Positions 1-11,724 of a stretch of 11,724 nt of DNA are shown in pieces. The position numbers and the translations under genes were made by a program. Position 1 is the stretch's first letter. Every line of letters starts with the position of its first letter. Source of the DNA: Promethearchaeota archaeon (GTDB lineage Archaea > Asgardarchaeota > Lokiarchaeia > Sigyniarchaeales > SOKP01); the NCBI GenBank assembly GCA_013375475.1, contig JABXKD010000085.1, positions 1 to 11,724 of the forward strand, read 5' to 3'. The notes below the pieces were generated by a model. That model was not told the DNA's origin, made no database searches, and saw only the letters and a list, made by a program, of their open reading frames with translations.

Positions 1-3000
1 AGTTTTAGTTTGTTTTTCTTATATTGGTTTAGTCAAAATGTATTTCCTGATAATGTGGTGATAACGAATATCGTGTTTGTTGTTTTCGCTATATCTTTAT
101 TGGTACCTTTGATCTACCGATTAAGAATGTGGAAGATTATTACTATTCTATGGCTAATTTACACCGGCGTTAACATTACATTTCTCTTCGCTTTATTTTT
201 GGAAATCGGTTTACCCTTAGAGATTATTTTATCAATCAATATAATCATATTAGGTTTATTTTTTCTGATTTTATCATTTTTCCCCAATCTTAAAAACATT
301 AAAAATATAGTTCTCGTAGGATCTTATCTTACATCTCTAATTGGACTTTTCCTTACAATATTTTACATCATAAATGGAATAATCTTTAATATTTACATAT
401 CAATCAATTTAGCCTTTATAACAATTGCTTTAAGTTTATTTTCATCAAGACTACTTAAATTCAACAAGACTTTTTTTAATGTCTTAATCTCATCAATATT
501 GGTTGTAAATTTCTCGCTCTTTACTTACAATACGCTTGTTCTGATTCCGGATTTCGAATTTTTTTCAATATTTCTAGCAATTACGGTATTTGGAGGTTCT
601 CTTTTCATATTTAATAAATACAGAATGATTATTCCGATAAAAAAGATAATCCCCTTGACGATTTTATCGCTTGGTGTGTCTTTAACATTATCTTTACTAA
701 CATATGTGTTCCTCCCTGGCTTTATTTATTTAACAATTGCCGTTTTTATCTTAGTAAATTCAATTTTTCTTAGATCGGTACTCTATGAATACCGTTCTAT
801 TTTGTGGTATGCCTTTCCAATTCCATTAATCTTAATATTTTTGCAATTTATGGTATTAATTGATTTATTTCAATCTCCTTTTATTATATCTTTATTATCT
901 CTGCTATTTTATACTGCTTTATTTCAAATTCCTTGCATGGTGTACAGGAAAAATGTTAAGAAACAAGAAGATCTTAAAGATTTTGGTTTACTTAAAGTTG
1001 AATCAATTCTCTCATTGTTTTTACATTTTGAAATAGGATTATTGAGTTTTAGTTTAATCAGTGAAAATTTGGATATTAGTTTCTTTGAAACAGCTTTACT
1101 CTCTGCAATAATCTTCTTCGTCTCAACTTTATTCGAAATCCATATTATTAAGAAAGTTAACGAAAAAATAATATATTCCTTTAATATTATTGCCTACATC
1201 TTTATTTCCATTGGTTTATTCATATTTTTAAACCAATTTATCGCGATAGATGTATCTATATTCGTCTTAAATCTAGTAATACTTTTAACATTACAATTCT
1301 ATACGCTTTATGCGTTATGCCATTACATTGGAAAACTAACTCAATACGAGGAAAGTGTAATAAAGAAAGTTAGAAAACAGATACAAAATATTTTACTAAA
1401 TTCAATTTTCGTAATAGTTAGTTTGTACATTTCATTATTATTGAGCAATTTACTAATCGCATATAATCCATCATTAACGGGATATCCATCATTAAGTTTC
1501 TCTGGAATGATATTTTCTCTATTGATGTTTATCCTTAACGGATTAGTGAATCGCACAATAGAAATTAAAATCAAAAATATTATTTTATTAGGCGCTTATA
1601 TTTTCTTTCAATTCTTTTTTGCCGCCTTTTGGATAGCTTTTTTCACAATATTTGATCTTTTTGATGTATTTAGAATTCTCTTAATTATAATATCTGAAAC
1701 AATCTTTACCTCCTTTACGATATACATATCAGGAAAAGTAACTAAAAGCGAGAAATGGAAGGAAACCATAAAGAAAATATATTCGTTTATTATATTTTGC
1801 ATTTATCTAGAAACCTCATTCTTGTTTTTAGGATTATTTCAATTATTCCTAGGCTTCTATGAAAGCTTACTGTTTTCACAGATCATATTATTCTTGATAA
1901 GTATAATAGAAATTTATGCTATTAAGCGTCTTAAGGAAGGATCTATGGAAATAGTACACACAATAAGTTTCGTAAATATCTCCTGGATTCTTTTTATCAT
2001 TTTATATAGCATGTTTAGTTATTCTACGCTCTTTTTAGTTTTAATAGTGTTTTTAATGATTTTATTGCAATTTTACACGAATTATTCATATTTTGATATT
2101 AGGCGAAAGTTCAATCCAGAAAAATTGAATGTATTCTTAAAATGGAAGGATTTTAGAAAAAATATATTAGGATGGGGTGTTTACATACTTCTTTTGGGGA
2201 GTATTTTTAACTTATTCGCAATTTTAGGCTTTGAATTTTATTTAATTATCTTAATTATAAGCCTGACCACACATTTACTAGCTCTATTTGATAAATATAT
2301 GTTAAAGTTTTTAGGAAACGCATCGAATTTCTTTATAAGCTTTTCTTGGATCATATTGATTGGCTTTTCAATTTTATTCTATCTTGAATGGATTTCTATA
2401 TCCTTTATCCAGATAATACCGATAATTATTTTTATCTTAATAATTCAATTCGCCTACCTATTTAGATTATTGAAGGATTGGGAGTTTATCAAAAAAAACC
2501 AATCAAAAATTAACATTTCTCTTGTGAAGCTGGTTTATCTTAACTTAATCACTTGGCCTTTATATTATATTAGCTCTGATTTGTTTATTTCACTGAATTT
2601 AGTTCTTTTTTCGTTTATAGTTTTGCTGGTGTTAACATTCCTGGACGATTACGTTAAAACAATAACAGAAAAGAATAGGAAATATCTAAAGGTCACGAGT
2701 TTCGCCATTACTGAAGTTTTGTTATCCTCTGATATATTTTTGGCTTTAGAATTATTTGTAAATCCTAATATAATTCTTAACATTAGCATTGCTTTATGCT
2801 TCTTTATGATTGTAAATTTAGGGTTATTTAAACCTTTTAAACGCAAGAAAATAAGTTCTTTCCTCTATACTTTAGCTTTGTTTTTGTTGTTAAGTATAAT
2901 TACATTTAATATGTCATTATCGGGCTGGAGTTTCTCATTGATTTTTGTAGGAATTTTGCTATACCTATTTGTTTTTATGCTGGAAGAATTGAAAGCCTTT

Positions 3001-3564
3001 TTCAACAATATCGTAGATAATTTAAGATTAATGTTTATAAAGTTGAAGAACTTCCTTCTAAGAGGATATTATAAGCTCGTTAATTTCTTAAAAAATAACA
3101 TTAGGTTTATAATGTATATTCTTTGTGTGTTCGCGGGTATAATTGTGGGAATAACTTTTTCTGAAATTGGTTTATGGCCATTGCTAAGATGGGATCATGC
3201 AACCTTATTAGCCCCGGCAACTTCTGGAATTTTAATTTCTTTAATCCCACCTAAGAAAACCGACGACCTAGATATAGTTTTTAGGAAACGGATGCAACGA
3301 TTTATAACTCTTTGGGTTAGTTTTACAGCTTTTGTGTTTGTACTAATACTACCATATATTACATCATTTCTTTTCGGTTTGATTCTGATTCTTTCATCTG
3401 TAATTATATTAGGAGCAATATTGGCTATTTATATATACAGAATTGAAAAAAAACAGAAGATTTCAATCAAGTGGAGGTTTTACACAACAATAGTTTTAAT
3501 AACCCTAACGATTACTTGGGCTCTGTTATTAGTTGTTTTTTACCTTACTGAAGTTGCAGTATAA
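1..3564 (+). CDS. Giant polytopic membrane protein of unknown function, 5'-truncated by the window edge, with internal ~260-aa repeats
   Basis: The frame is open from base 1 (AGT TTT AGT TTG...), so the TTG at 10 is probably not the true start. More than 1180 aa of ~20-aa hydrophobic stretches separated by Lys-rich loops (roughly 30 TM segments by eye). Stop TAA at 3562-3564. No catalytic or transporter motif recognised. Confidence 0.85.
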   Translation, partial: SFSLFFLYWFSQNVFPDNVVITNIVFVVFAISLLVPLIYRLRMWKIITILWLIYTGVNITFLFALFLEIGLPLEIILSINIIILGLFFLILSFFPNLKNIKNIVLVGSYLTSLIGLFLTIFYIINGIIFNIYISINLAFITIALSLFSSRLLKFNKTFFNVLISSILVVNFSLFTYNTLVLIPDFEFFSIFLAITVFGGSLFIFNKYRMIIPIKKIIPLTILSLGVSLTLSLLTYVFLPGFIYLTIAVFILVNSIFLRSVLYEYRSILWYAFPIPLILIFLQFMVLIDLFQSPFIISLLSLLFYTALFQIPCMVYRKNVKKQEDLKDFGLLKVESILSLFLHFEIGLLSFSLISENLDISFFETALLSAIIFFVSTLFEIHIIKKVNEKIIYSFNIIAYIFISIGLFIFLNQFIAIDVSIFVLNLVILLTLQFYTLYALCHYIGKLTQYEESVIKKVRKQIQNILLNSIFVIVSLYISLLLSNLLIAYNPSLTGYPSLSFSGMIFSLLMFILNGLVNRTIEIKIKNIILLGAYIFFQFFFAAFWIAFFTIFDLFDVFRILLIIISETIFTSFTIYISGKVTKSEKWKETIKKIYSFIIFCIYLETSFLFLGLFQLFLGFYESLLFSQIILFLISIIEIYAIKRLKEGSMEIVHTISFVNISWILFIILYSMFSYSTLFLVLIVFLMILLQFYTNYSYFDIRRKFNPEKLNVFLKWKDFRKNILGWGVYILLLGSIFNLFAILGFEFYLIILIISLTTHLLALFDKYMLKFLGNASNFFISFSWIILIGFSILFYLEWISISFIQIIPIIIFILIIQFAYLFRLLKDWEFIKKNQSKINISLVKLVYLNLITWPLYYISSDLFISLNLVLFSFIVLLVLTFLDDYVKTITEKNRKYLKVTSFAITEVLLSSDIFLALELFVNPNIILNISIALCFFMIVNLGLFKPFKRKKISSFLYTLALFLLLSIITFNMSLSGWSFSLIFVGILLYLFVFMLEELKAFFNNIVDNLRLMFIKLKNFLLRGYYKLVNFLKNNIRFIMYILCVFAGIIVGITFSEIGLWPLLRWDHATLLAPATSGILISLIPPKKTDDLDIVFRKRMQRFITLWVSFTAFVFVLILPYITSFLFGLILILSSVIILGAILAIYIYRIEKKQKISIKWRFYTTIVLITLTITWALLLVVFYLTEVAV

Positions 3565-3965: not shown

Positions 3966-4928
3966 TTATTTGATACTTTCGATCGAAATTTTAGGATTGG
4001 TTAGGTTTATACCTATCTCCCTGAGTTCATTAATGATTTTATCGACAATTTGTTTTGCTTCAGAATTTCTCTTCAAACCACTTATCATCATTTTACCCTT
4101 AGAAAATAAAATGATTGTAGCGCTTGGGTTCTGGTTTTTAATAATCAACCCGGGAAATTTCTCTGGATTAAACTCAGCATTTTCGATTTTTTGAGCGATT
4201 TGACTCAGGTCTAACTTTTTTTCAATCTCCAATGACACGGTTATTTCATGCTTCGAAATTCTTTGATGTAACACTATCTCTATTTTTTTATAGAATTCTT
4301 TTAAATTACCTTTCAAATCTTCATAAAATCTTCTAACATCTGCTTGTTCTTCTTCAGAAAATGAATCTAAATCATTTATGTATAAAGCTTTGAAATTATC
4401 TTGAGTAGCACTTAATTGCGATTCAAAATCAGTACAGAGAGAGTGAATTATTTCTTCAATCGCTTGATTAATTTTCCGATCTAAACTTACACTGATCATT
4501 AACATTTCTTTATTTCCACGAGCCCAATCCGAGTGGAGTTCAAAATAATAATTTGCGGAAGATATAATACTGGATTGATTGATGAAAAATCTTTCTTTAG
4601 AAGCTTGAATCATTATTTCAGCGATACTTTCTTTTTCTAAATTATTCAGAACATTCTCTGGAAATGAATAGAATACATGAGGACCACTTCTTCTTTTAAA
4701 GAAGGTCAATGTAACAGTAGTTTTTGTAGCGAGTTTCGCTTCAGGGATTAAAATAAGAGTATAAGAAACATCAGGATCAAGGAGTTCATCATCAATATAC
4801 GCTTTACTTATAGGAAATTTAGCCCCATTCTTATGTACCCTTAACATTTGACGCCTTAGGCTTATGCCCCCAAATTTATGTGAATCTACGATCATTTTTT
4901 TTCTATCTTTTTCATTCATGATTTCCAT
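3966..4928 (-). CDS. Three-domain fusion: AbrB/MazE-like N-terminus + longin/uDENN-like domain + one TATA-binding-protein (TBP) repeat
   Basis: aa ~224-320 match one archaeal TBP repeat (LDLSQIA...AEFNPEKFPGLIIK..NPSATIILFSKGKMMISG.K). aa ~70-220 show the uDENN/longin pattern TFF...GP...YSFP plus YYFELHSDWARGNKEMLMISV. aa ~20-63 resemble a swapped hairpin (GAKFPISKAYID..LL.P...YTLILIP). RBS-like GAGGT lies 8 nt before the ATG. Confidence 0.85.
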   Translation of the reverse strand: MEIMNEKDRKKMIVDSHKFGGISLRRQMLRVHKNGAKFPISKAYIDDELLDPDVSYTLILIPEAKLATKTTVTLTFFKRRSGPHVFYSFPENVLNNLEKESIAEIMIQASKERFFINQSSIISSANYYFELHSDWARGNKEMLMISVSLDRKINQAIEEIIHSLCTDFESQLSATQDNFKALYINDLDSFSEEEQADVRRFYEDLKGNLKEFYKKIEIVLHQRISKHEITVSLEIEKKLDLSQIAQKIENAEFNPEKFPGLIIKNQNPSATIILFSKGKMMISGLKRNSEAKQIVDKIINELREIGINLTNPKISIESIK

Positions 4929-7809: not shown

Positions 7810-8784
7810 ATGAGTAATGATACAACTAAAAAAGCAATTAATTTCCTTAGTTTTCTCATATCCTATAAATGTACTAATGAATGCAAACATTGTGCTCTTC
7901 TAGCATCTCCAAATCAGGATGATATCAAAATAGAATTTGGAGATTTAAAAAGATATTTGGAAGACATAACATCAAACTATATCGTTCAAGAAGTCGGATT
8001 TTTTGGAGGAGAACCCCTACTTAATTTTGATTTACTAATCAGTTTTATCGAAGAAGTAAAGAAATATGATATTCCAAAAATTGGATTACCAACTAATGGA
8101 TATTGGGGAAAAAGTGATTCAATTGCTAAGAAATATGCCCTAAAACTGAAAAAAGCAGGTTTAAATAGCATAGGGTTTAGTGTTGATGCATTTCATCAGG
8201 AGTTTATTCCACTCGATGATGTAAAGATAGCAGTAAGAGCGTGTCATGAAGCGGGAATAGAAATAATATATTTGATATCACAAAAGCTTGGAGGCCCAGG
8301 AGCAAAGAACATATTTAATGAAAAAACCAACGAAATTACCGATATCCTTTCAGATGAATTTGATTATGGCCAATTAATAACTAGTGATTTACAAGTGAAA
8401 GGTCGGGCTGCAAACCATTTAACAGAATATTTCTCAATGGTAACAATCCCTTCAGATAAATGTCTAATTTTTAAGGTCCCGATGTTCATGATAGATCCTA
8501 ATGGATGGGTTTTTCATCAACTATGCGACGGGATTACAATCGGGAATGCCAAGAAAAAGTCTTTATCGGAGATAATTAGTGAATTTAGCTACAGAAAACA
8601 CCCTATTATAGGAAAAGTAGTGACTAAGGGAGGACCTCAAAATCTCCTTGAGATGGCGATTGAAAAAGGGTATGAGCCTTTAAGTGGATATGCTGACAAG
8701 TGTCACGTCTGTTATAGTGCTCGTAATTATCTTCGTCCTTATTATCCAAATATCCTTGAACCTTCAAATTTGTACTTCCAATGA
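7810..8784 (+). CDS. Radical SAM protein with C-terminal SPASM/Twitch-like Cys-containing extension
   Basis: CxxxCxxC (CTNECKHC, 7870-7893), GGEP, TNG and SVD motifs. C-terminal C...IDPNG.V...C...IGN and CHVC. ATG at 7810 follows GAGTTGATAAAAAA, 34 nt after the padR stop. Substrate unknown. Confidence 0.9.
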   Translation: MSNDTTKKAINFLSFLISYKCTNECKHCALLASPNQDDIKIEFGDLKRYLEDITSNYIVQEVGFFGGEPLLNFDLLISFIEEVKKYDIPKIGLPTNGYWGKSDSIAKKYALKLKKAGLNSIGFSVDAFHQEFIPLDDVKIAVRACHEAGIEIIYLISQKLGGPGAKNIFNEKTNEITDILSDEFDYGQLITSDLQVKGRAANHLTEYFSMVTIPSDKCLIFKVPMFMIDPNGWVFHQLCDGITIGNAKKKSLSEIISEFSYRKHPIIGKVVTKGGPQNLLEMAIEKGYEPLSGYADKCHVCYSARNYLRPYYPNILEPSNLYFQ

Positions 8785-8814
8785 TGTATTATTTTCTGGC
8801 AGTTTATAATTTTT

Positions 8815-9666
8815 TTATGGTTTTACAATATCATCTACATTTGTTCTGTTCTCCGAGTAGAATAGAATCAGTATAATCCCTACTATCGCAATTAGAACCA
8901 TCAAGATGAAGATACCCTGAAATGTGTTCACAGCAAGAAATAATGAGCTCTCATTTACGGTTACATGAAGTAAAGCAGTGAGAAGGATGCTTTGTGTCTT
9001 ACTATAAAGCCAAGTGACTAAAAAAGTGAAGATAACAACCCTAATAGTGTATATTAAAAATACTAGCAAATCTATAGAACCCTCTTCAATTAGAAACATC
9101 GGAATATGCCATAAAGCATGGGGTAAGCCAATAATAAAACTCATTTTAATTGGGCTTTGCGTCTTCTGTAGATGATGCTGAGCAAATCCTCGCCACCCTA
9201 TCTCTTCTTCATAATTACCTAGTAAGAGTCTAACCAAAAAATGGAAAATGAAACCTAAAAGTCCATATACTACTATTGTATTTGGAAACGATTCCCCTAG
9301 CATGAGCTCAATACTTAGTGGAATCATAAAGATCGCTATTGGCATGAGGAGAGCAAACACATAATAGATGGGGTTAACTCTCCATCTGAAGATTCGGTTA
9401 ACTAATTCTCGGAGTTCACTTTTTCCATACAACATTAATGTGAGAATGATAGCAGCAATCCCTGGTCCGCACGCTCCAATTTTTGCTAAGATTTCCAAGA
9501 TAATAAGAAGCGTTGCTGGTGCCAACTCAGGTAATGCTCTATAAGGTTCAAATACCATAAATACTGTGAGCCAGCATGTCCAAGTTATAACAAATGTTAA
9601 GAAAAAATACGCTAAAACAGGATGTTTATGTACGAAAGATTTCATAGGGGATTTTACCAAATCCAA
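8815..9666 (-). CDS. CPBP-family (Abi / type II CAAX) intramembrane glutamic endopeptidase
   Basis: EEEIGWRG (EExxxR), HALWH and LLHVTVN (HxxxN) motifs with multiple TM helices. Start is TTG 9666 or ATG 9645. Confidence 0.92.
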   Translation of the reverse strand: MDLVKSPMKSFVHKHPVLAYFFLTFVITWTCWLTVFMVFEPYRALPELAPATLLIILEILAKIGACGPGIAAIILTLMLYGKSELRELVNRIFRWRVNPIYYVFALLMPIAIFMIPLSIELMLGESFPNTIVVYGLLGFIFHFLVRLLLGNYEEEIGWRGFAQHHLQKTQSPIKMSFIIGLPHALWHIPMFLIEEGSIDLLVFLIYTIRVVIFTFLVTWLYSKTQSILLTALLHVTVNESSLFLAVNTFQGIFILMVLIAIVGIILILFYSENRTNVDDIVKP

Positions 9667-9712
9667 TTTTCTTTTTAATTTTAGTTTTTAATTCTAACAT
9701 TAATTAATCTAA

Positions 9713-9720
9713 TATTTAAA
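9713..9720 (-). promoter_or_regulatory. TATA box for the CPBP gene
   Basis: TTTAAATA on the minus strand ~47 nt upstream of TTG 9666. Confidence 0.45.
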
Positions 9721-9804
9721 ATTAATTTGGACCGTTTTTTACCAGATATTCAAATTAGGATTTATTCAAGTTACCTATATAGAAGAATTCTAATGAAACG
9801 GTAT

Positions 9805-9817
9805 TGAAGAAAAAAGG
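9805..9817 (-). terminator. Candidate U-tract terminator / 3' end of the structured RNA
   Basis: Minus strand CCTTTTTTCTTCA, the first long pyrimidine/T-tract after the structured region. Confidence 0.35.
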
Positions 9818-9895
9818 TTCAAGAAGTTGCAATGAGTTTCTGATGGGTTTTTGCGTAGTATTGTAGCAATGTAATTTAAGATTGTTCAACAAGTT

Positions 9896-10011
9896 CGAAA
9901 ACCCGTCGTCCAATCCGTATCCGAAGATACATCAGGCTCCAGAGAAGCTTGATTTACCAATTTCATTACCGTTAGGTAGTTCAATTGGTAGCATTACATT
10001 GATTGCGATAC
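9896..10011 (-). repeat. Degenerate ~115-nt direct repeat, copy B (3' copy in the RNA)
   Basis: Shares the blocks CGAAAACC, CCAA, TATCCGAAGATA, ACCAATTT, TACC..AGGTA.TTCAA and CATT.CATTGA....ATAC, in the same order, with 10396-10513 (offset ~500 nt). Confidence 0.75.
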
Positions 10012-10395
10012 CTTTTCCTATGACCACACTATCATTCACGACCCGATGGAATAAGCAATTAAATCCCCGAAAGAATTTGTTGCGAGATATTGCCATTCCT
10101 TACGAGGTAAGGAAAGTCCCCATTCAATGCATTCAAACAATTGGTTGTGAAACCTCCTGTCAGAATCACTCCGGAGATTTAGTCGAAATTGCTAGCATAG
10201 CTCGACTTACCGAAATAGCATACCCGTTAGGATAACATTCGGTAGCATCTCATGAGGTTGCTATATCTTTTCCGATGATCATGTATTCAAGCATGATTTG
10301 AGAAAATACAAATATGCCCGAAGGCTCATTGCTAGTATTTCATTCTATATTTTCATATAAAATGTCTCAATGACCAACTCTTTTTAGCATTAATC

Positions 10396-10513
10396 CGAAA
10401 ACCAATGAACCAAACTTATATCCGAAGATATAATCTTTCCGATAAGGAAAGAAAGTTTAACCAATTTTTCATACCAGAGGTATTCAAATTGATCATTCCA
10501 TTGAGGTAAATAC
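10396..10513 (-). repeat. Degenerate ~115-nt direct repeat, copy A (5' copy in the RNA)
   Basis: Colinear with 9896-10011. Exact 12-mer TATCCGAAGATA at 10419-10430 and 9918-9929. Indels between the copies are not multiples of three. Confidence 0.75.
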
Positions 10514-10568
10514 TACTTCTCGATATTCACACCGCGAGGTATGAACAATATATATTTTGAACGGATCA

Positions 10569-10576
10569 TATTTAAA
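10569..10576 (-). promoter_or_regulatory. Putative TATA box for the candidate ncRNA
   Basis: TTTAAATA on the minus strand ending 21 nt before the first hairpin (10547). It is identical to the TATA octamers in front of three genes in this window. The upstream sequence is not a canonical BRE. Confidence 0.5.
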
Positions 10577-10648
10577 TGGGACTATTAAGGGATTACTAAA
10601 AAATTTTGTCGCTAGGATTCGGTTAAAATTTTTTTAAGTCGGATTCAT

Positions 10649-11724
10649 CTATTCGATATAGCACGATAAATCCTTTTGTTCAGATTTCCTCATAATATTC
10701 GATTTTATCAGTTCCTCAAGTTCGGGAAACTCGAAAGGAAAAATGTTTTCAAAGGCTCTTTTAAGTAATTCGACATATTTCTTTCTGTCGTACTGATGCT
10801 TTTTCTCGTCGTAAAGATCTGAGAGAATAACCTTATTCTCAGGAAATTCCGGGTTAGCATCTGCATTGAGTATAATATATCGTACATTTTTGCCAGGGGT
10901 TACCACTACCCCCGATCTCTCCAATTGTTTTGCCGCAACAGCTTGATAGGAGTTTACTTTATATTGAGATGGTTTCCTGGAAACTCTTTGGCGAATTGTA
11001 AGTTCTTCTCGCGAAATTTTTCCTGTCTCTATTTTGTCAATGTAATTGTAGAGTGTTTTCTTCGCTTTTGGCATTCTTCTCATAAATTCTTTGGTGGTAG
11101 TTGCTCCTTGAAAAACATCTATAAACGCATATTGTGCGACTTTAACAATTTTTGGTGCATCTCTACGGCGAACTTCAATTCCTCGGACTTTTACTTCTCC
11201 GTCGCTCTTAATACCCCAGTAATGACTTAACGCAGGAATATCGGATTCCGCTTTCGAAGGGAGAAAACAAATAACATTATAACGCCCGTCCCAACTCATA
11301 GGAATACCCACGCTTTCGGTTATTTCAGCAGCTATTTCTCTTGTTACTTCTTCAAACTCTTCGGGAGTCCGGTTTTCAGTGTCTTTCAGCCAAATCGAAT
11401 CTACAATTCCATGAATAATTTTGCAGCCGCGTTCTTCAGCAATCTCAGCAGAGCGCATTAAAAATTCCCTAGCAAAAGCACAAACGGTTTGATGCGCTTC
11501 AATCTTCCCAAAACGGGCGTTTTTGAAACCTAAATAGCCAAAACTCACTACAAGCACCCATTTGAGAGCGATATCCACAAAGTTATAACGAACGCTTCCG
11601 GTTTTGCGGACATATTCTTTGTACTTCAGCCTCTTATTCAAAGGCAGACTTATTGATTTTGATATTATACCTTGCCTTTTTGTGCAGATGTGAAAGTCCA
11701 ATCCTGGAACTTTTATGCCAGTGC
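10649..11724 (-). CDS. polB2: Archaeal family B DNA polymerase, PolB2 (Dpo2-like) group; C-terminal part only, 5' end outside the window
   Basis: The frame stays open to the window edge (TGIKVPGLDFHIC...). Motif B ALKWVLVVSFGYLG, motif C HGIVDS (11396-11413; PolB2-type, versus canonical YGDTDS), thumb motif RGIEVRRRD, and C-terminal PIP box QKDLSCYI (10655-10678). Confidence 0.9.
   Translation of the reverse strand, partial: TGIKVPGLDFHICTKRQGIISKSISLPLNKRLKYKEYVRKTGSVRYNFVDIALKWVLVVSFGYLGFKNARFGKIEAHQTVCAFAREFLMRSAEIAEERGCKIIHGIVDSIWLKDTENRTPEEFEEVTREIAAEITESVGIPMSWDGRYNVICFLPSKAESDIPALSHYWGIKSDGEVKVRGIEVRRRDAPKIVKVAQYAFIDVFQGATTTKEFMRRMPKAKKTLYNYIDKIETGKISREELTIRQRVSRKPSQYKVNSYQAVAAKQLERSGVVVTPGKNVRYIILNADANPEFPENKVILSDLYDEKKHQYDRKKYVELLKRAFENIFPFEFPELEELIKSNIMRKSEQKDLSCYIE

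Follow-up and report, generated by a model that had tools for sequence, protein, structure and literature searches.

We have identified a stand-alone gene for a structured non-coding RNA (ncRNA) in the genome of a Promethearchaeota archaeon. The gene occupies positions 10546-9810 on the minus strand of contig JABXKD010000085.1 (assembly GCA_013375475.1), all 11,724 nucleotides (nt) of which were analyzed and are referred to here as the window. It is an independent gene with a covarying core fold and a modular make-up, and its sequence is present in RNA libraries. Its relatives share a frame composed of a leader hairpin (P1), a helix joining the two ends (P2), a P2/P3/P4 junction, a variable, hairpin-rich interior closed by P5, and a terminal CC plus oligo-U. 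We consider it probable that the gene represents a new RNA family restricted to a single Asgard family. The mature RNA may form a stable multivalent scaffold; acting as such a scaffold, or as a sponge, for one or more proteins is the likeliest function, although that function taken by itself is less probable than not.

The gene lies within approximately 980 nt that separate a family-B DNA polymerase gene (10649-11722, minus strand; identified by its match to Pfam DNA_pol_B), which runs off the contig end, from a gene for an Rce1-like/CPBP membrane protease (8815-9666, minus strand). This interval contains no convincing open reading frame (ORF) and its minus strand is dense in hairpins, in keeping with the initial annotation, which had placed a structured ncRNA here with ends that agree within a few bases with 10546-9810. 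RNAfold predicted a free energy of -225.7 kcal/mol for 9805-10548 on the minus strand, compared with -170.4 +/- 5.2 kcal/mol for 20 dinucleotide-preserving shuffles (z = -10.7), while the plus strand gave a z-score of -4.3. In the consensus fold, the row of the window itself has 205 Watson-Crick, 30 G-U and 5 mismatched pairs, and the 30 G-U pairs would become A-C mismatches if read on the opposite strand. Both the G-U pairs and the strand asymmetry of folding bear out the earlier suggestion that selection acts on RNA rather than on DNA. The sole sizeable ORF of the RNA stretch (9882-10235, plus strand, 117 amino acids) is antisense to the RNA. It has no match in Pfam, is open for at least 100 amino acids in only three of six close homologues, and has variable columns distributed 31/41/41 across codon positions. 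Because the ORF has no Pfam match, is not kept in homologues and displays no codon-position bias, the stretch is not protein-coding, and a protein-coding gene was rejected as an explanation; protein or transposase homology, which the initial annotation had named as a point to check, was likewise not found. A multi-copy mobile element was also rejected, as BLAST and regular expressions for the family handle and for the promoter each found a single genomic copy of the RNA gene (the promoter expression gave seven further matches that are chance-like in AT-rich DNA).

The RNA gene has its own strongly conserved promoter. In an alignment of 27 members from different loci in two genera, a TATA box, TTTAAATA (10569-10576, minus strand), is invariant in all 27, and an upstream element, TTAATAG (10582-10588, minus strand), located within the conserved stretch AAYCCCTTAATAG, is invariant at every position except the last, which is nearly so. 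The upstream element stands ahead of every locus inspected, and AAYCCCTTAATAG and TTTAAATA are separated by 4-5 nt in all family members. Given this conservation, TTAATAG probably works as a promoter element. In family members a purine occurs ~22 nt past the TATA box and is followed by P1; in the window, the box is located ~26 nt upstream of this conserved purine (10546). Archaeal promoters have a characteristic distance between TATA box and start site, and transcription is likely to start at about G10546. The motif was not seen upstream of the RNase P, SRP (signal recognition particle) or 5S genes, and a promoter common to other stable RNAs was thus rejected.

P1, the 5' leader hairpin, is UGUUCAUACC-UCGC-GGUGUGAAUA in the window (10524-10547, minus strand), where it had been correctly recognized beforehand. 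It is paired in all homologues, has compensatory changes at two of its nine pairs in the homologue alignment, and takes the general form UGUUCAUACC-loop-GGUGUGAA, with YGAGAAG-NN-GUAU following 1-3 nt later. P1 would form the start of the primary transcript, and there is a weak hint that it is probably removed from the mature RNA. In six polymerase-linked members of a second genus (L045-L050), P1 is doubled in tandem (UUCACAU..GUGUGAA-GCAA-UUCGCAU..AUGUGAA). At the other end, each of the 32 members extracted closes with the hairpin GCAAUGA..CC-UUCG-GG..UCAUUGC, then CUUCUYG, 0-2 nt and CCUUU(U). The CC plus oligo-U of the window (9810-9817, minus strand) fits this pattern, and homology to relatives, which extends from the polymerase gene into the RNA, breaks off abruptly at ~9807. 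Oligo-U terminates archaeal transcription, and the transcript presumably ends in the U run at 9815-9810, making this tail the likely terminator. The full family signature, TTAATAG-N-TTTAAATA, P1, GAGAAG-NN-GUA, the terminal GCAAUGA..UUCG..UCAUUGC hairpin and CUUCUYG with CCUUU, is present in the window.

The promoter bears directly on whether this is an independent RNA at all. The stretch might instead be a structured 3' untranslated region of the polymerase mRNA, a DNA-level element such as a replication or recombination site, or a decayed gene, and in keeping with this the polymerase gene is directly upstream, on the same strand, at 22 of 35 loci examined. These proposals are largely refuted and we regard them as scarcely credible, since the RNA has its own invariant TATA box and upstream element, since 13 of the 35 loci have no polymerase gene within ~1.5 kb upstream (less at contig ends) while retaining the same promoter, and since G-U pairs and folding asymmetry indicate selection at the RNA level with no coding signal. 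Linkage to the polymerase gene applies to the majority of these loci and not to all of them.

In order to define the core fold, 11 type A monomers of 258-294 nt from two genera were aligned and folded with RNAalifold. The consensus has 79 predicted pairs, of which 30 show compensatory double changes, compared with 15.2 +/- 2.3 when 3' partners were shuffled; none of 500 shuffles reached 30. Paired cells amount to 96.0% versus 87.9 +/- 0.6% with shuffled 3' partners, and sliding the partners by 1-3 columns reduced the compensatory pairs to 6-9 and pairing to 35-41%. A second interior, type B, occurs in the same frame in 13 sequences of 349-382 nt, with 24 of 89 predicted pairs compensatory. Homologues of type A, of type B and of the long forms described below all covary, an outcome that the initial annotation had proposed to look for. 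The core comprises the P1 leader, P2 joining the 5' and 3' ends, P3 beginning two bases after P2, P5 closing an interior of four hairpins (a-d), P6, which is mostly capped by a GNRA loop, and the terminal hairpin P4. The three-way junction at which P2, P3 and P4 meet leaves few bases unpaired and has an invariant sequence, GAGAAGUAGUAU; loops throughout are mostly GNRA and UUCG. P2 is nearly invariant in all 11 monomers, changing only from G-C to G-U. In the window its 3' strand, (A)CUUCUUGA (9819-9827, minus strand), is the partner of 10523-10515 and is paired in 12 of 12 long forms except for one cell. A K-turn in P4 or hairpin a was rejected by inspection only, the candidate bases not being conserved, and a G3-U70-like alanine identity pair in P2 was rejected because the pair is G-C in nine of the 11 monomers.

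The RNA of the window is a head-to-tail trimer of type A units, each of ~250 nt, and not one unique multi-domain fold. R1, a 140-position covariance model that extends from P1 through hairpin c, was run with filters off and matched the minus strand of the window three times, at 10548-10416 (138.3 bits), 10300-10165 (28.9 bits, E = 2.3e-5) and 10058-9915 (39.2 bits, E = 3.1e-7). Three matches were also obtained with an nhmmer profile built from the complete type A monomer, at RNA nt 1-247 (103 bits), 283-493 (E = 1.5e-7) and 539-734 (E = 7.4e-15), and direct repeats in the stretch are spaced 254-255 nt apart. The 250-nt repeat was not detected by Tandem Repeats Finder because the copies are too diverged. 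Global MAFFT alignment of the three units gave 44-55% identity and 105-126 matched columns, versus 91 +/- 13 for shuffles; it is the profile and covariance-model matches, rather than this comparison of units, that argue for triplication. The initial annotation had described a single large multi-domain RNA of ~740 nt with one domain present in two copies. Its size and structured nature are upheld; the single unit gives way to a trimer of a ~250-nt RNA that is monomeric in relatives, and the module is present in three copies.

The three units nest into one 735-nt fold because the closing strands of units 1 and 3 are swapped. Module 1 (10301-10523, minus strand) is delimited by the R1 and type A profile matches, RNAalifold on 12 long forms and covariation in the 11 monomers. 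RNAalifold on the long forms places the 5' strand of P2 at 10523-10515 and that of P3 at 10514-10509. P5 pairs 10505-10498 with 10373-10366 around hairpins a-d and covaries in relatives. RNAalifold also predicts the P6 hairpin at 10364-10341 (GAAA loop), the 3' strand of P3 at 10339-10334, the 5' strand of P4 at 10332-10325, an apex CC-UUCG-GG at 10324-10317 and a degenerate linker, UUUUCU. Module 1 is interrupted at the apex of its P4 hairpin, and the 3' strands of its P4 and P2 come only after module 3. Module 2 (10059-10300, minus strand), recognized by R1, the type A profile and the direct repeats, is a complete nested copy. In the 12-long-form fold it has a P1-like hairpin, AUCAUG/CAUGAU (10297-10278), with GGAA/UUCC and AGAUAU/AUAUCU helices, and on the same strand there are hairpins with UAAC, CUAG and UCCG loops, UUCCUUAC-CUC-GUAAGGAA, and GCAA-AAAUUCU-UUCG-GGGAUUU-UUGC. 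Module 3 (9828-10058, minus strand) is supported by R1 and the type A profile, with pairs taken from the 12-long-form fold. It has a degenerate P1-like stretch, then the strand AGGAAAA, and hairpins with UAAC, UCUG and two UUCG loops. Its GGAAAA strand pairs back to the degenerate UUUUCU after module 1, and its end supplies the P4 3' strand, CUCAUUGC (9836-9829, minus strand). The simplest history would be a head-to-tail triplication, with the copies first joined in a single transcript and the exchange of closing strands fixed afterwards.

This arrangement revises several of the helices proposed initially. The local hairpins were found again, including UUAUAUC-UUCG-GAUAUAA, CAUUUUAUAU-GAAA-AUAUAGAAUG, GCC-UUCG-GGC, both UAAC hairpins, the CUC-loop and AAAUUCU-UUCG-GGGAUUU hairpins, and the second three-hairpin domain. 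The count of one GAAA and two UAAC loops was likewise right, and there are six UUCG loops in place of the four reported. Longer-range pairings fared less well. The CUCAAUG strand that had been assigned to a CAAUGGA/UUCAUUG helix pairs instead with CAUUGAG in the covarying P5, UUCAUUG belonging to the fourth hairpin, d. P5 also displaces UUGAGA/UCUCAA, which is not kept in homologues. UUCACAACC/GGUCGUGAA is broken in homologues, most of which have GCC where the window has GAA (one differs at several further positions), and is replaced by pairing of GGUCGUG with CAUGAUC. AUCAUG/CAUGAU was correctly seen and corresponds to the P1-like hairpin of module 2; it competes with the CAUGAUC/GGUCGUG helix.

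The family was delimited by profile and covariance-model searches. BLAST against 61 related genomes recovered full-length copies at 82-94% identity in five places and, elsewhere, copies that match only at the ends. Members form a series of monomers of 258-382 nt with type A or type B interiors, A-B fusions of 662-667 nt and A-A-A trimers of 735-742 nt. At one locus of genome G122 (L046:1440-2340), there is a tandem pair of complete RNA genes, spaced 512 nt apart, both of which have a separate promoter and a doubled P1; this may be a stage before the fused forms. Another locus (L115, minus strand from about 5435) has the family promoter and handle, with only its first 67 nt matching the type A profile and none matching type B, and may represent a third interior type or a truncated gene.

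The length series invites the reading that the RNA is a protein-free, self-assembling multimer, in the manner reported for ROOL, GOLLD and OLE, in which monomers swap P2/P4 closing strands or touch by loops and the fused genes are covalent versions of the assembly. The occurrence of the genes as monomers, A-B dimers and A-A-A trimers is suggestive, as is the exchange of closing strands between units 1 and 3 of the trimer, by which units can pair with one another, and the predominance of GNRA and UUCG loops is shared with large folded RNAs. RNA-only complexes are described for large bacterial RNAs in one report (10.1101/2024.12.08.627333), and the fused Asgard forms could echo them. However, the argument from fusion is borrowed from proteins, and the RNA has no sequence or structure match to ROOL, GOLLD or OLE. 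We consider self-assembly unlikely, though it is the foremost of the alternatives to a scaffold that binds protein.

Public sequence data were used to look for the transcript. Twenty public runs hold part of the RNA stretch, 14 of them recorded as RNA, from seven studies and with 0.3-0.54 of sampled words present; the labels of the run records, which are labels only, name sediment, estuary and soil. Logan contigs of four RNA runs from four studies were placed on 8800-11724. Contigs fall on bins 9780-10563 in all four (1556 in X1, 71 in X2, four in X10 and 43 in X12), an outcome on expression that favors the initial annotation. The flanking bins (8800-9779 and 10564-11724) have zero cover in these runs, which carries no evidence because the runs were picked by the RNA stretch itself; nor does contig depth measure expression. 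In X2, contigs run up against sequencing adapters at both ends of P2 (9819 and 10523), with a one-base ambiguity at each. A contig of X10 ends at 10522. In all, contigs of three RNA runs end at 10521-10523, two of them against an adapter or contig end.

One contig of X1 (179 nt, word depth 5458) joins ...GAACCUUU at 9813 head-to-tail to AUCGAGAAGUAGUAU... (AUCGAGAAG...), from 10524 onward. The joined sequence is a variant that is also represented by DNA contigs (L129 and L147). As these are linear, with P1 in front and oligo-T behind, the join formed in RNA, and it could reflect either a circular isoform or template switching on an abundant RNA. The genome encodes RtcB; for an Rnl-type RNA ligase it gave only a 23-bit match, below the cut-off. 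No bulge-helix-bulge motif was seen in the leader, P2 or trailer around the junction, which were inspected by eye only. Together, the contig ends and the single junction hint that P1 is removed and that the ends are sometimes joined.

These contigs also bear on two other proposals. If the long transcript were a precursor, its P1-like hairpins would mark cleavage sites and three RNAs of ~230 nt would be the active species. Each of the three units does open with a P1-like hairpin and a GAGAAG-like strand, the contig ends suggest cleavage just 3' of the first P1, and the relative with two complete tandem genes has these in place of a fusion. Against this, an X10 contig that spans 10029-10349 without a single difference bridges both unit boundaries and hence both internal P1-like sites, the internal P1 copies are degenerate (28.9 and 39.2 bits versus 138 for the first), and the interlocked closing helices of units 1 and 3 would hold cut pieces together. 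We therefore regard a precursor as improbable. Less probable still is a ribozyme, in which the P2/P3/P4 junction would cleave off the P1 leader or perform some other reaction. The invariance of the junction, the position of the apparent cut exactly at the base of P2 and the presence of RtcB, which joins ribozyme-type ends, would all suit such an activity. Yet there is no Rfam match to hammerhead, hepatitis delta virus (HDV)-like, twister, hatchet or pistol ribozymes, the strand order by inspection does not fit the HDV fold nor the junction strands the hammerhead core, and there are no more than hints of the cut itself. Hammerhead and HDV-like folds were rejected by inspection of strand order and junction lengths only.

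The distribution of the family was surveyed in 151 genomes sampled from the class by means of a second model, R2, which spans the promoter, P1 and the 5' strands of P2 and P3. R2, with which the window scores 102 bits, matched 54 genomes, all within one Asgard family. With the genome of the window itself left aside, matches occurred in 18 of 39 genomes of its genus, 34 of 50 of a second genus and one of six of a third; there were none among 31 genomes of ten further genera of the family or 24 genomes of six other families. The gene is present once in 51 of the 54 carriers and twice in the other three. The exact handle pattern was found at 30 loci among genomes of 185,579 species, with record titles all naming Asgard groups or 'uncultured archaeon' metagenome-assembled genomes (27 of the 30 are identical to loci already found in the carrier family), as well as on 25 metagenome contigs and on no viral contig. 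These titles and a gelsolin-repeat gene beside the copy of one relative show the host to be an Asgard archaeon, in agreement with the archaeal RNA proposed initially. Loci not linked to the polymerase gene have a GNAT acetyltransferase, gelsolin-repeat protein, HSP20, thioredoxin-reductase-like enzyme, methyltransferase or ferredoxin as unrelated neighbors. Of five same-genus genomes that have no RNA gene, two had their polymerase loci read, and in both the stretch after the polymerase gene holds other genes. The RNA gene is single-copy and dispensable or replaceable, and it has changed place together with its promoter.

Such behavior raises the question of a selfish or mobile element, such as a viroid- or retrozyme-like circle that also has a copy in the chromosome, or a cassette mobile together with its promoter. 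The patchy occurrence within a genus, at least four genomic contexts into which promoter and RNA have moved together, filled and empty sites at the same polymerase locus, common internal duplications and the one head-to-tail RNA junction are all compatible with mobility. We nevertheless find it quite improbable: 51 of the 54 genomes carry one copy; no reverse transcriptase, transposase or integrase adjoins the gene; terminal repeats or target duplications were not recognized; and neither a viral contig with the handle pattern nor a match to a known self-cleaving ribozyme was found.

Comparison with known RNAs agreed with the initial annotation, which could match the RNA to no known family. Rfam 15, which includes OLE, GOLLD, ROOL, HEARO, raiA, group I and II introns and self-cleaving ribozymes, gave no covariance-model match to the RNA. 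There were no matches in the whole window at gathering score; region 9500-10800 at E <= 10 gave three chance-level matches, the best (E = 0.42) on the other strand and outside the RNA; and five loci with short, type B and fused forms gave none at E <= 1. Archaeal RNase P RNA (RF00373) was rejected, a full-length match of 137.5 bits lying on another contig (C22). Archaeal SRP RNA (RF01857) was rejected since its match (62.9 bits, E = 1.5e-13) is on contig C166, with none in the window. That SRP RNA (G000:C166:40735-40970) scores below the cut-off of 96.5 bits and covers model positions 67-307 only, and the Rfam archaeal SRP model seems to fit this lineage poorly. 5S ribosomal RNA (rRNA; RF00001) was rejected, as a canonical 5S above the cut-off (51.9 bits) is encoded at C263:6954-7076 and only the topology of the junction is alike. 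A tRNA-like RNA or tmRNA was rejected because ARAGORN found no genes in the window, the spacing from P2 to CC varies by 0-2 nt, and CC is followed by U. A Y RNA in a Ro60 ribonucleoprotein was rejected because PF05731 (TROVE) has no match at E <= 0.01 in the genome of the window (G000), rated 100% complete.

Several of these RNAs nonetheless resemble the Asgard RNA in general character. OLE (RF01071) is a large (~600 nt), ornate, stand-alone ncRNA with many conserved helices, found in a narrow group of anaerobes and long of unknown function. It differs in being bacterial, linked to oap protein genes and not known to be built of repeated modules, while the Asgard RNA has neither a cmscan match to OLE nor a conserved neighbor gene. 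ROOL and GOLLD are of the same size class, multi-domain and rich in stable loops, with biochemical function unassigned; they are bacterial and often borne by prophages, in contrast to an archaeal RNA with one copy per genome, no viral contig with its handle and no Rfam match. Y RNAs and bacterial YrlA share ends paired in a conserved stem, a variable, modular interior, a U-rich 3' end and abundance. They are, however, ~100 nt long and bind Ro60, for which no TROVE gene was found in the complete Asgard genome, and the Asgard RNA has no Rfam match. Halococcus 5S rRNA with its large insertion has an end helix leading into a three-way junction with two arms and grows by insertions in the arms. The Asgard RNA differs in that a canonical 5S is located elsewhere in the genome, it does not match RF00001, and it is missing from some complete relatives, as a ribosomal RNA would not be. 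Circular RNAs of archaea, the subject of two reports (PMC12918454, PMC12558985), include rRNA processing intermediates, C/D-box small RNAs and omega-RNA circles. A head-to-tail RNA junction absent from DNA and an RtcB gene are points in common, whereas here no bulge-helix-bulge was seen by inspection, the 3' partner lies in an oligo-U tract, and the junction is one contig that does not establish circularity. We found no description of this RNA, or of any large structured RNA family in Asgard archaea, in the full-text literature, a scope that leaves supplements and subscription journals outside, and a prior description is possible.

Taken together, these findings lead us to favor a stable multivalent scaffold, and the following sequence of events is proposed. 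Transcription would begin from about G10546, and the 23-nt P1 leader would then be cut off at the P1/P2 boundary. P2 would clamp the new 5' end to the 3' end, and the ends might sometimes be ligated. A nearly fully paired, nuclease-resistant RNA with few free ends could thereby accumulate, and its repeated modules, capped by UUCG, GNRA and UAAC loops, would make it a multivalent scaffold, or a sponge, to which one or more proteins bind.

Several observations weigh against this proposal. The most serious concerns distribution: R2 at E <= 1 found nothing in five same-genus genomes, of which four carry a completeness rating of 100%, and a gene that complete genomes of its own genus can lack is dispensable or replaceable, a poor fit to a core housekeeping scaffold. 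Patchiness within the genus argues against an essential housekeeping role and is the main fact that the preferred reading leaves unexplained. Neighboring genes vary among loci, and nothing points to a partner protein. For P1 and P2, conservation is mostly unaccompanied by covariation and, more than compensatory change, is what supports their pairing. The helices specific to the long forms show little covariation because the 12 sequences are 91% identical: among 242 predicted pairs in the 12 long forms, 14 are compensatory, and in six long forms 11 of 257 are, versus 4.8 +/- 1.8 in shuffles, one of 500 of which reached 11. The local AUCAUG/CAUGAU and long-range CAUGAUC/GGUCGUG helices are mutually exclusive, the latter showing an A-U to G-C change in two of the 12 long forms. 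All RNA evidence consists of assembled contigs, which give neither strand, true ends nor expression level. Finally, the head-to-tail junction is represented by one contig from one run; because that contig accounts for little of the total depth around it, template switching by reverse transcriptase could explain the junction.

Other features of the window and of its relatives were also observed. An ORF of 1187 amino acids at 1-3564 (plus strand) is open at the contig start and has no Pfam match at E <= 0.01. At 3966-4928 (minus strand), a 320-amino-acid protein has a single C-terminal TBP repeat (residues 228-304) after a long N-terminal part without clear family, an unusual architecture for a TBP domain. 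The CPBP/Rce1-like gene is absent from the otherwise collinear locus of one relative, which has 46 bp (L002:1455-1501) in place of the ~1 kb at 8782-9806 of the window; this insertion or deletion is located between the 3' border of the RNA and a radical-SAM gene. Just past the stop codon of the polymerase gene (10608-10640, minus strand) are the words GAAUCCGAC and GAAUCCUAGCGAC, 20 nt apart. GAAUCCGAC is also found at the RNA-less, empty site of a relative and may be a trace of cassette insertion. In another relative (L094; G016:C10:28817-29884), the match to the orthologous family-B polymerase has one in-frame TAA, which could reflect a sequencing error, a pseudogene or recoding.

To our knowledge, new large structured RNA families are rare and most of the known ones are bacterial, and we know of no counterpart to a frame with two interchangeable interiors and a natural series of monomers, dimers and trimers. 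The RNA may thus be of a new kind, with the reservation that knowledge of its function could later align it with an existing class. The computational support is unusually clean, comprising an invariant promoter, strong covariation, natural length variants and RNA libraries from several studies. For annotation, loci that are now blank intergenic DNA would gain a gene, and a considerable fraction of the reads in sediment metatranscriptomes may come from the RNA. Although the hosts have not been cultured, the monomers, at ~260 nt, are of a size that suits in vitro transcription, chemical probing and cryo-EM. The farthest-reaching possibility, to which we assign a rather low likelihood, is that this is the first large ncRNA class specific to Asgard archaea, end-joined or end-clamped, among the more abundant transcripts of these cells in sediments, and made of units that assemble with one another. 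If so, the natural A-A-A and A-B fusions, whose closing helices are strand-swapped, would serve as 'Rosetta stone' evidence that the monomers build higher-order RNA or RNA-protein particles, and the RNA would represent a new kind of architecture for cellular RNA in the nearest prokaryotic relatives that eukaryotes are known to have. A role as a scaffold, a circular form or self-assembly into particles, if demonstrated, would open a testable question on RNA-based cell biology in the lineage nearest to eukaryotes.

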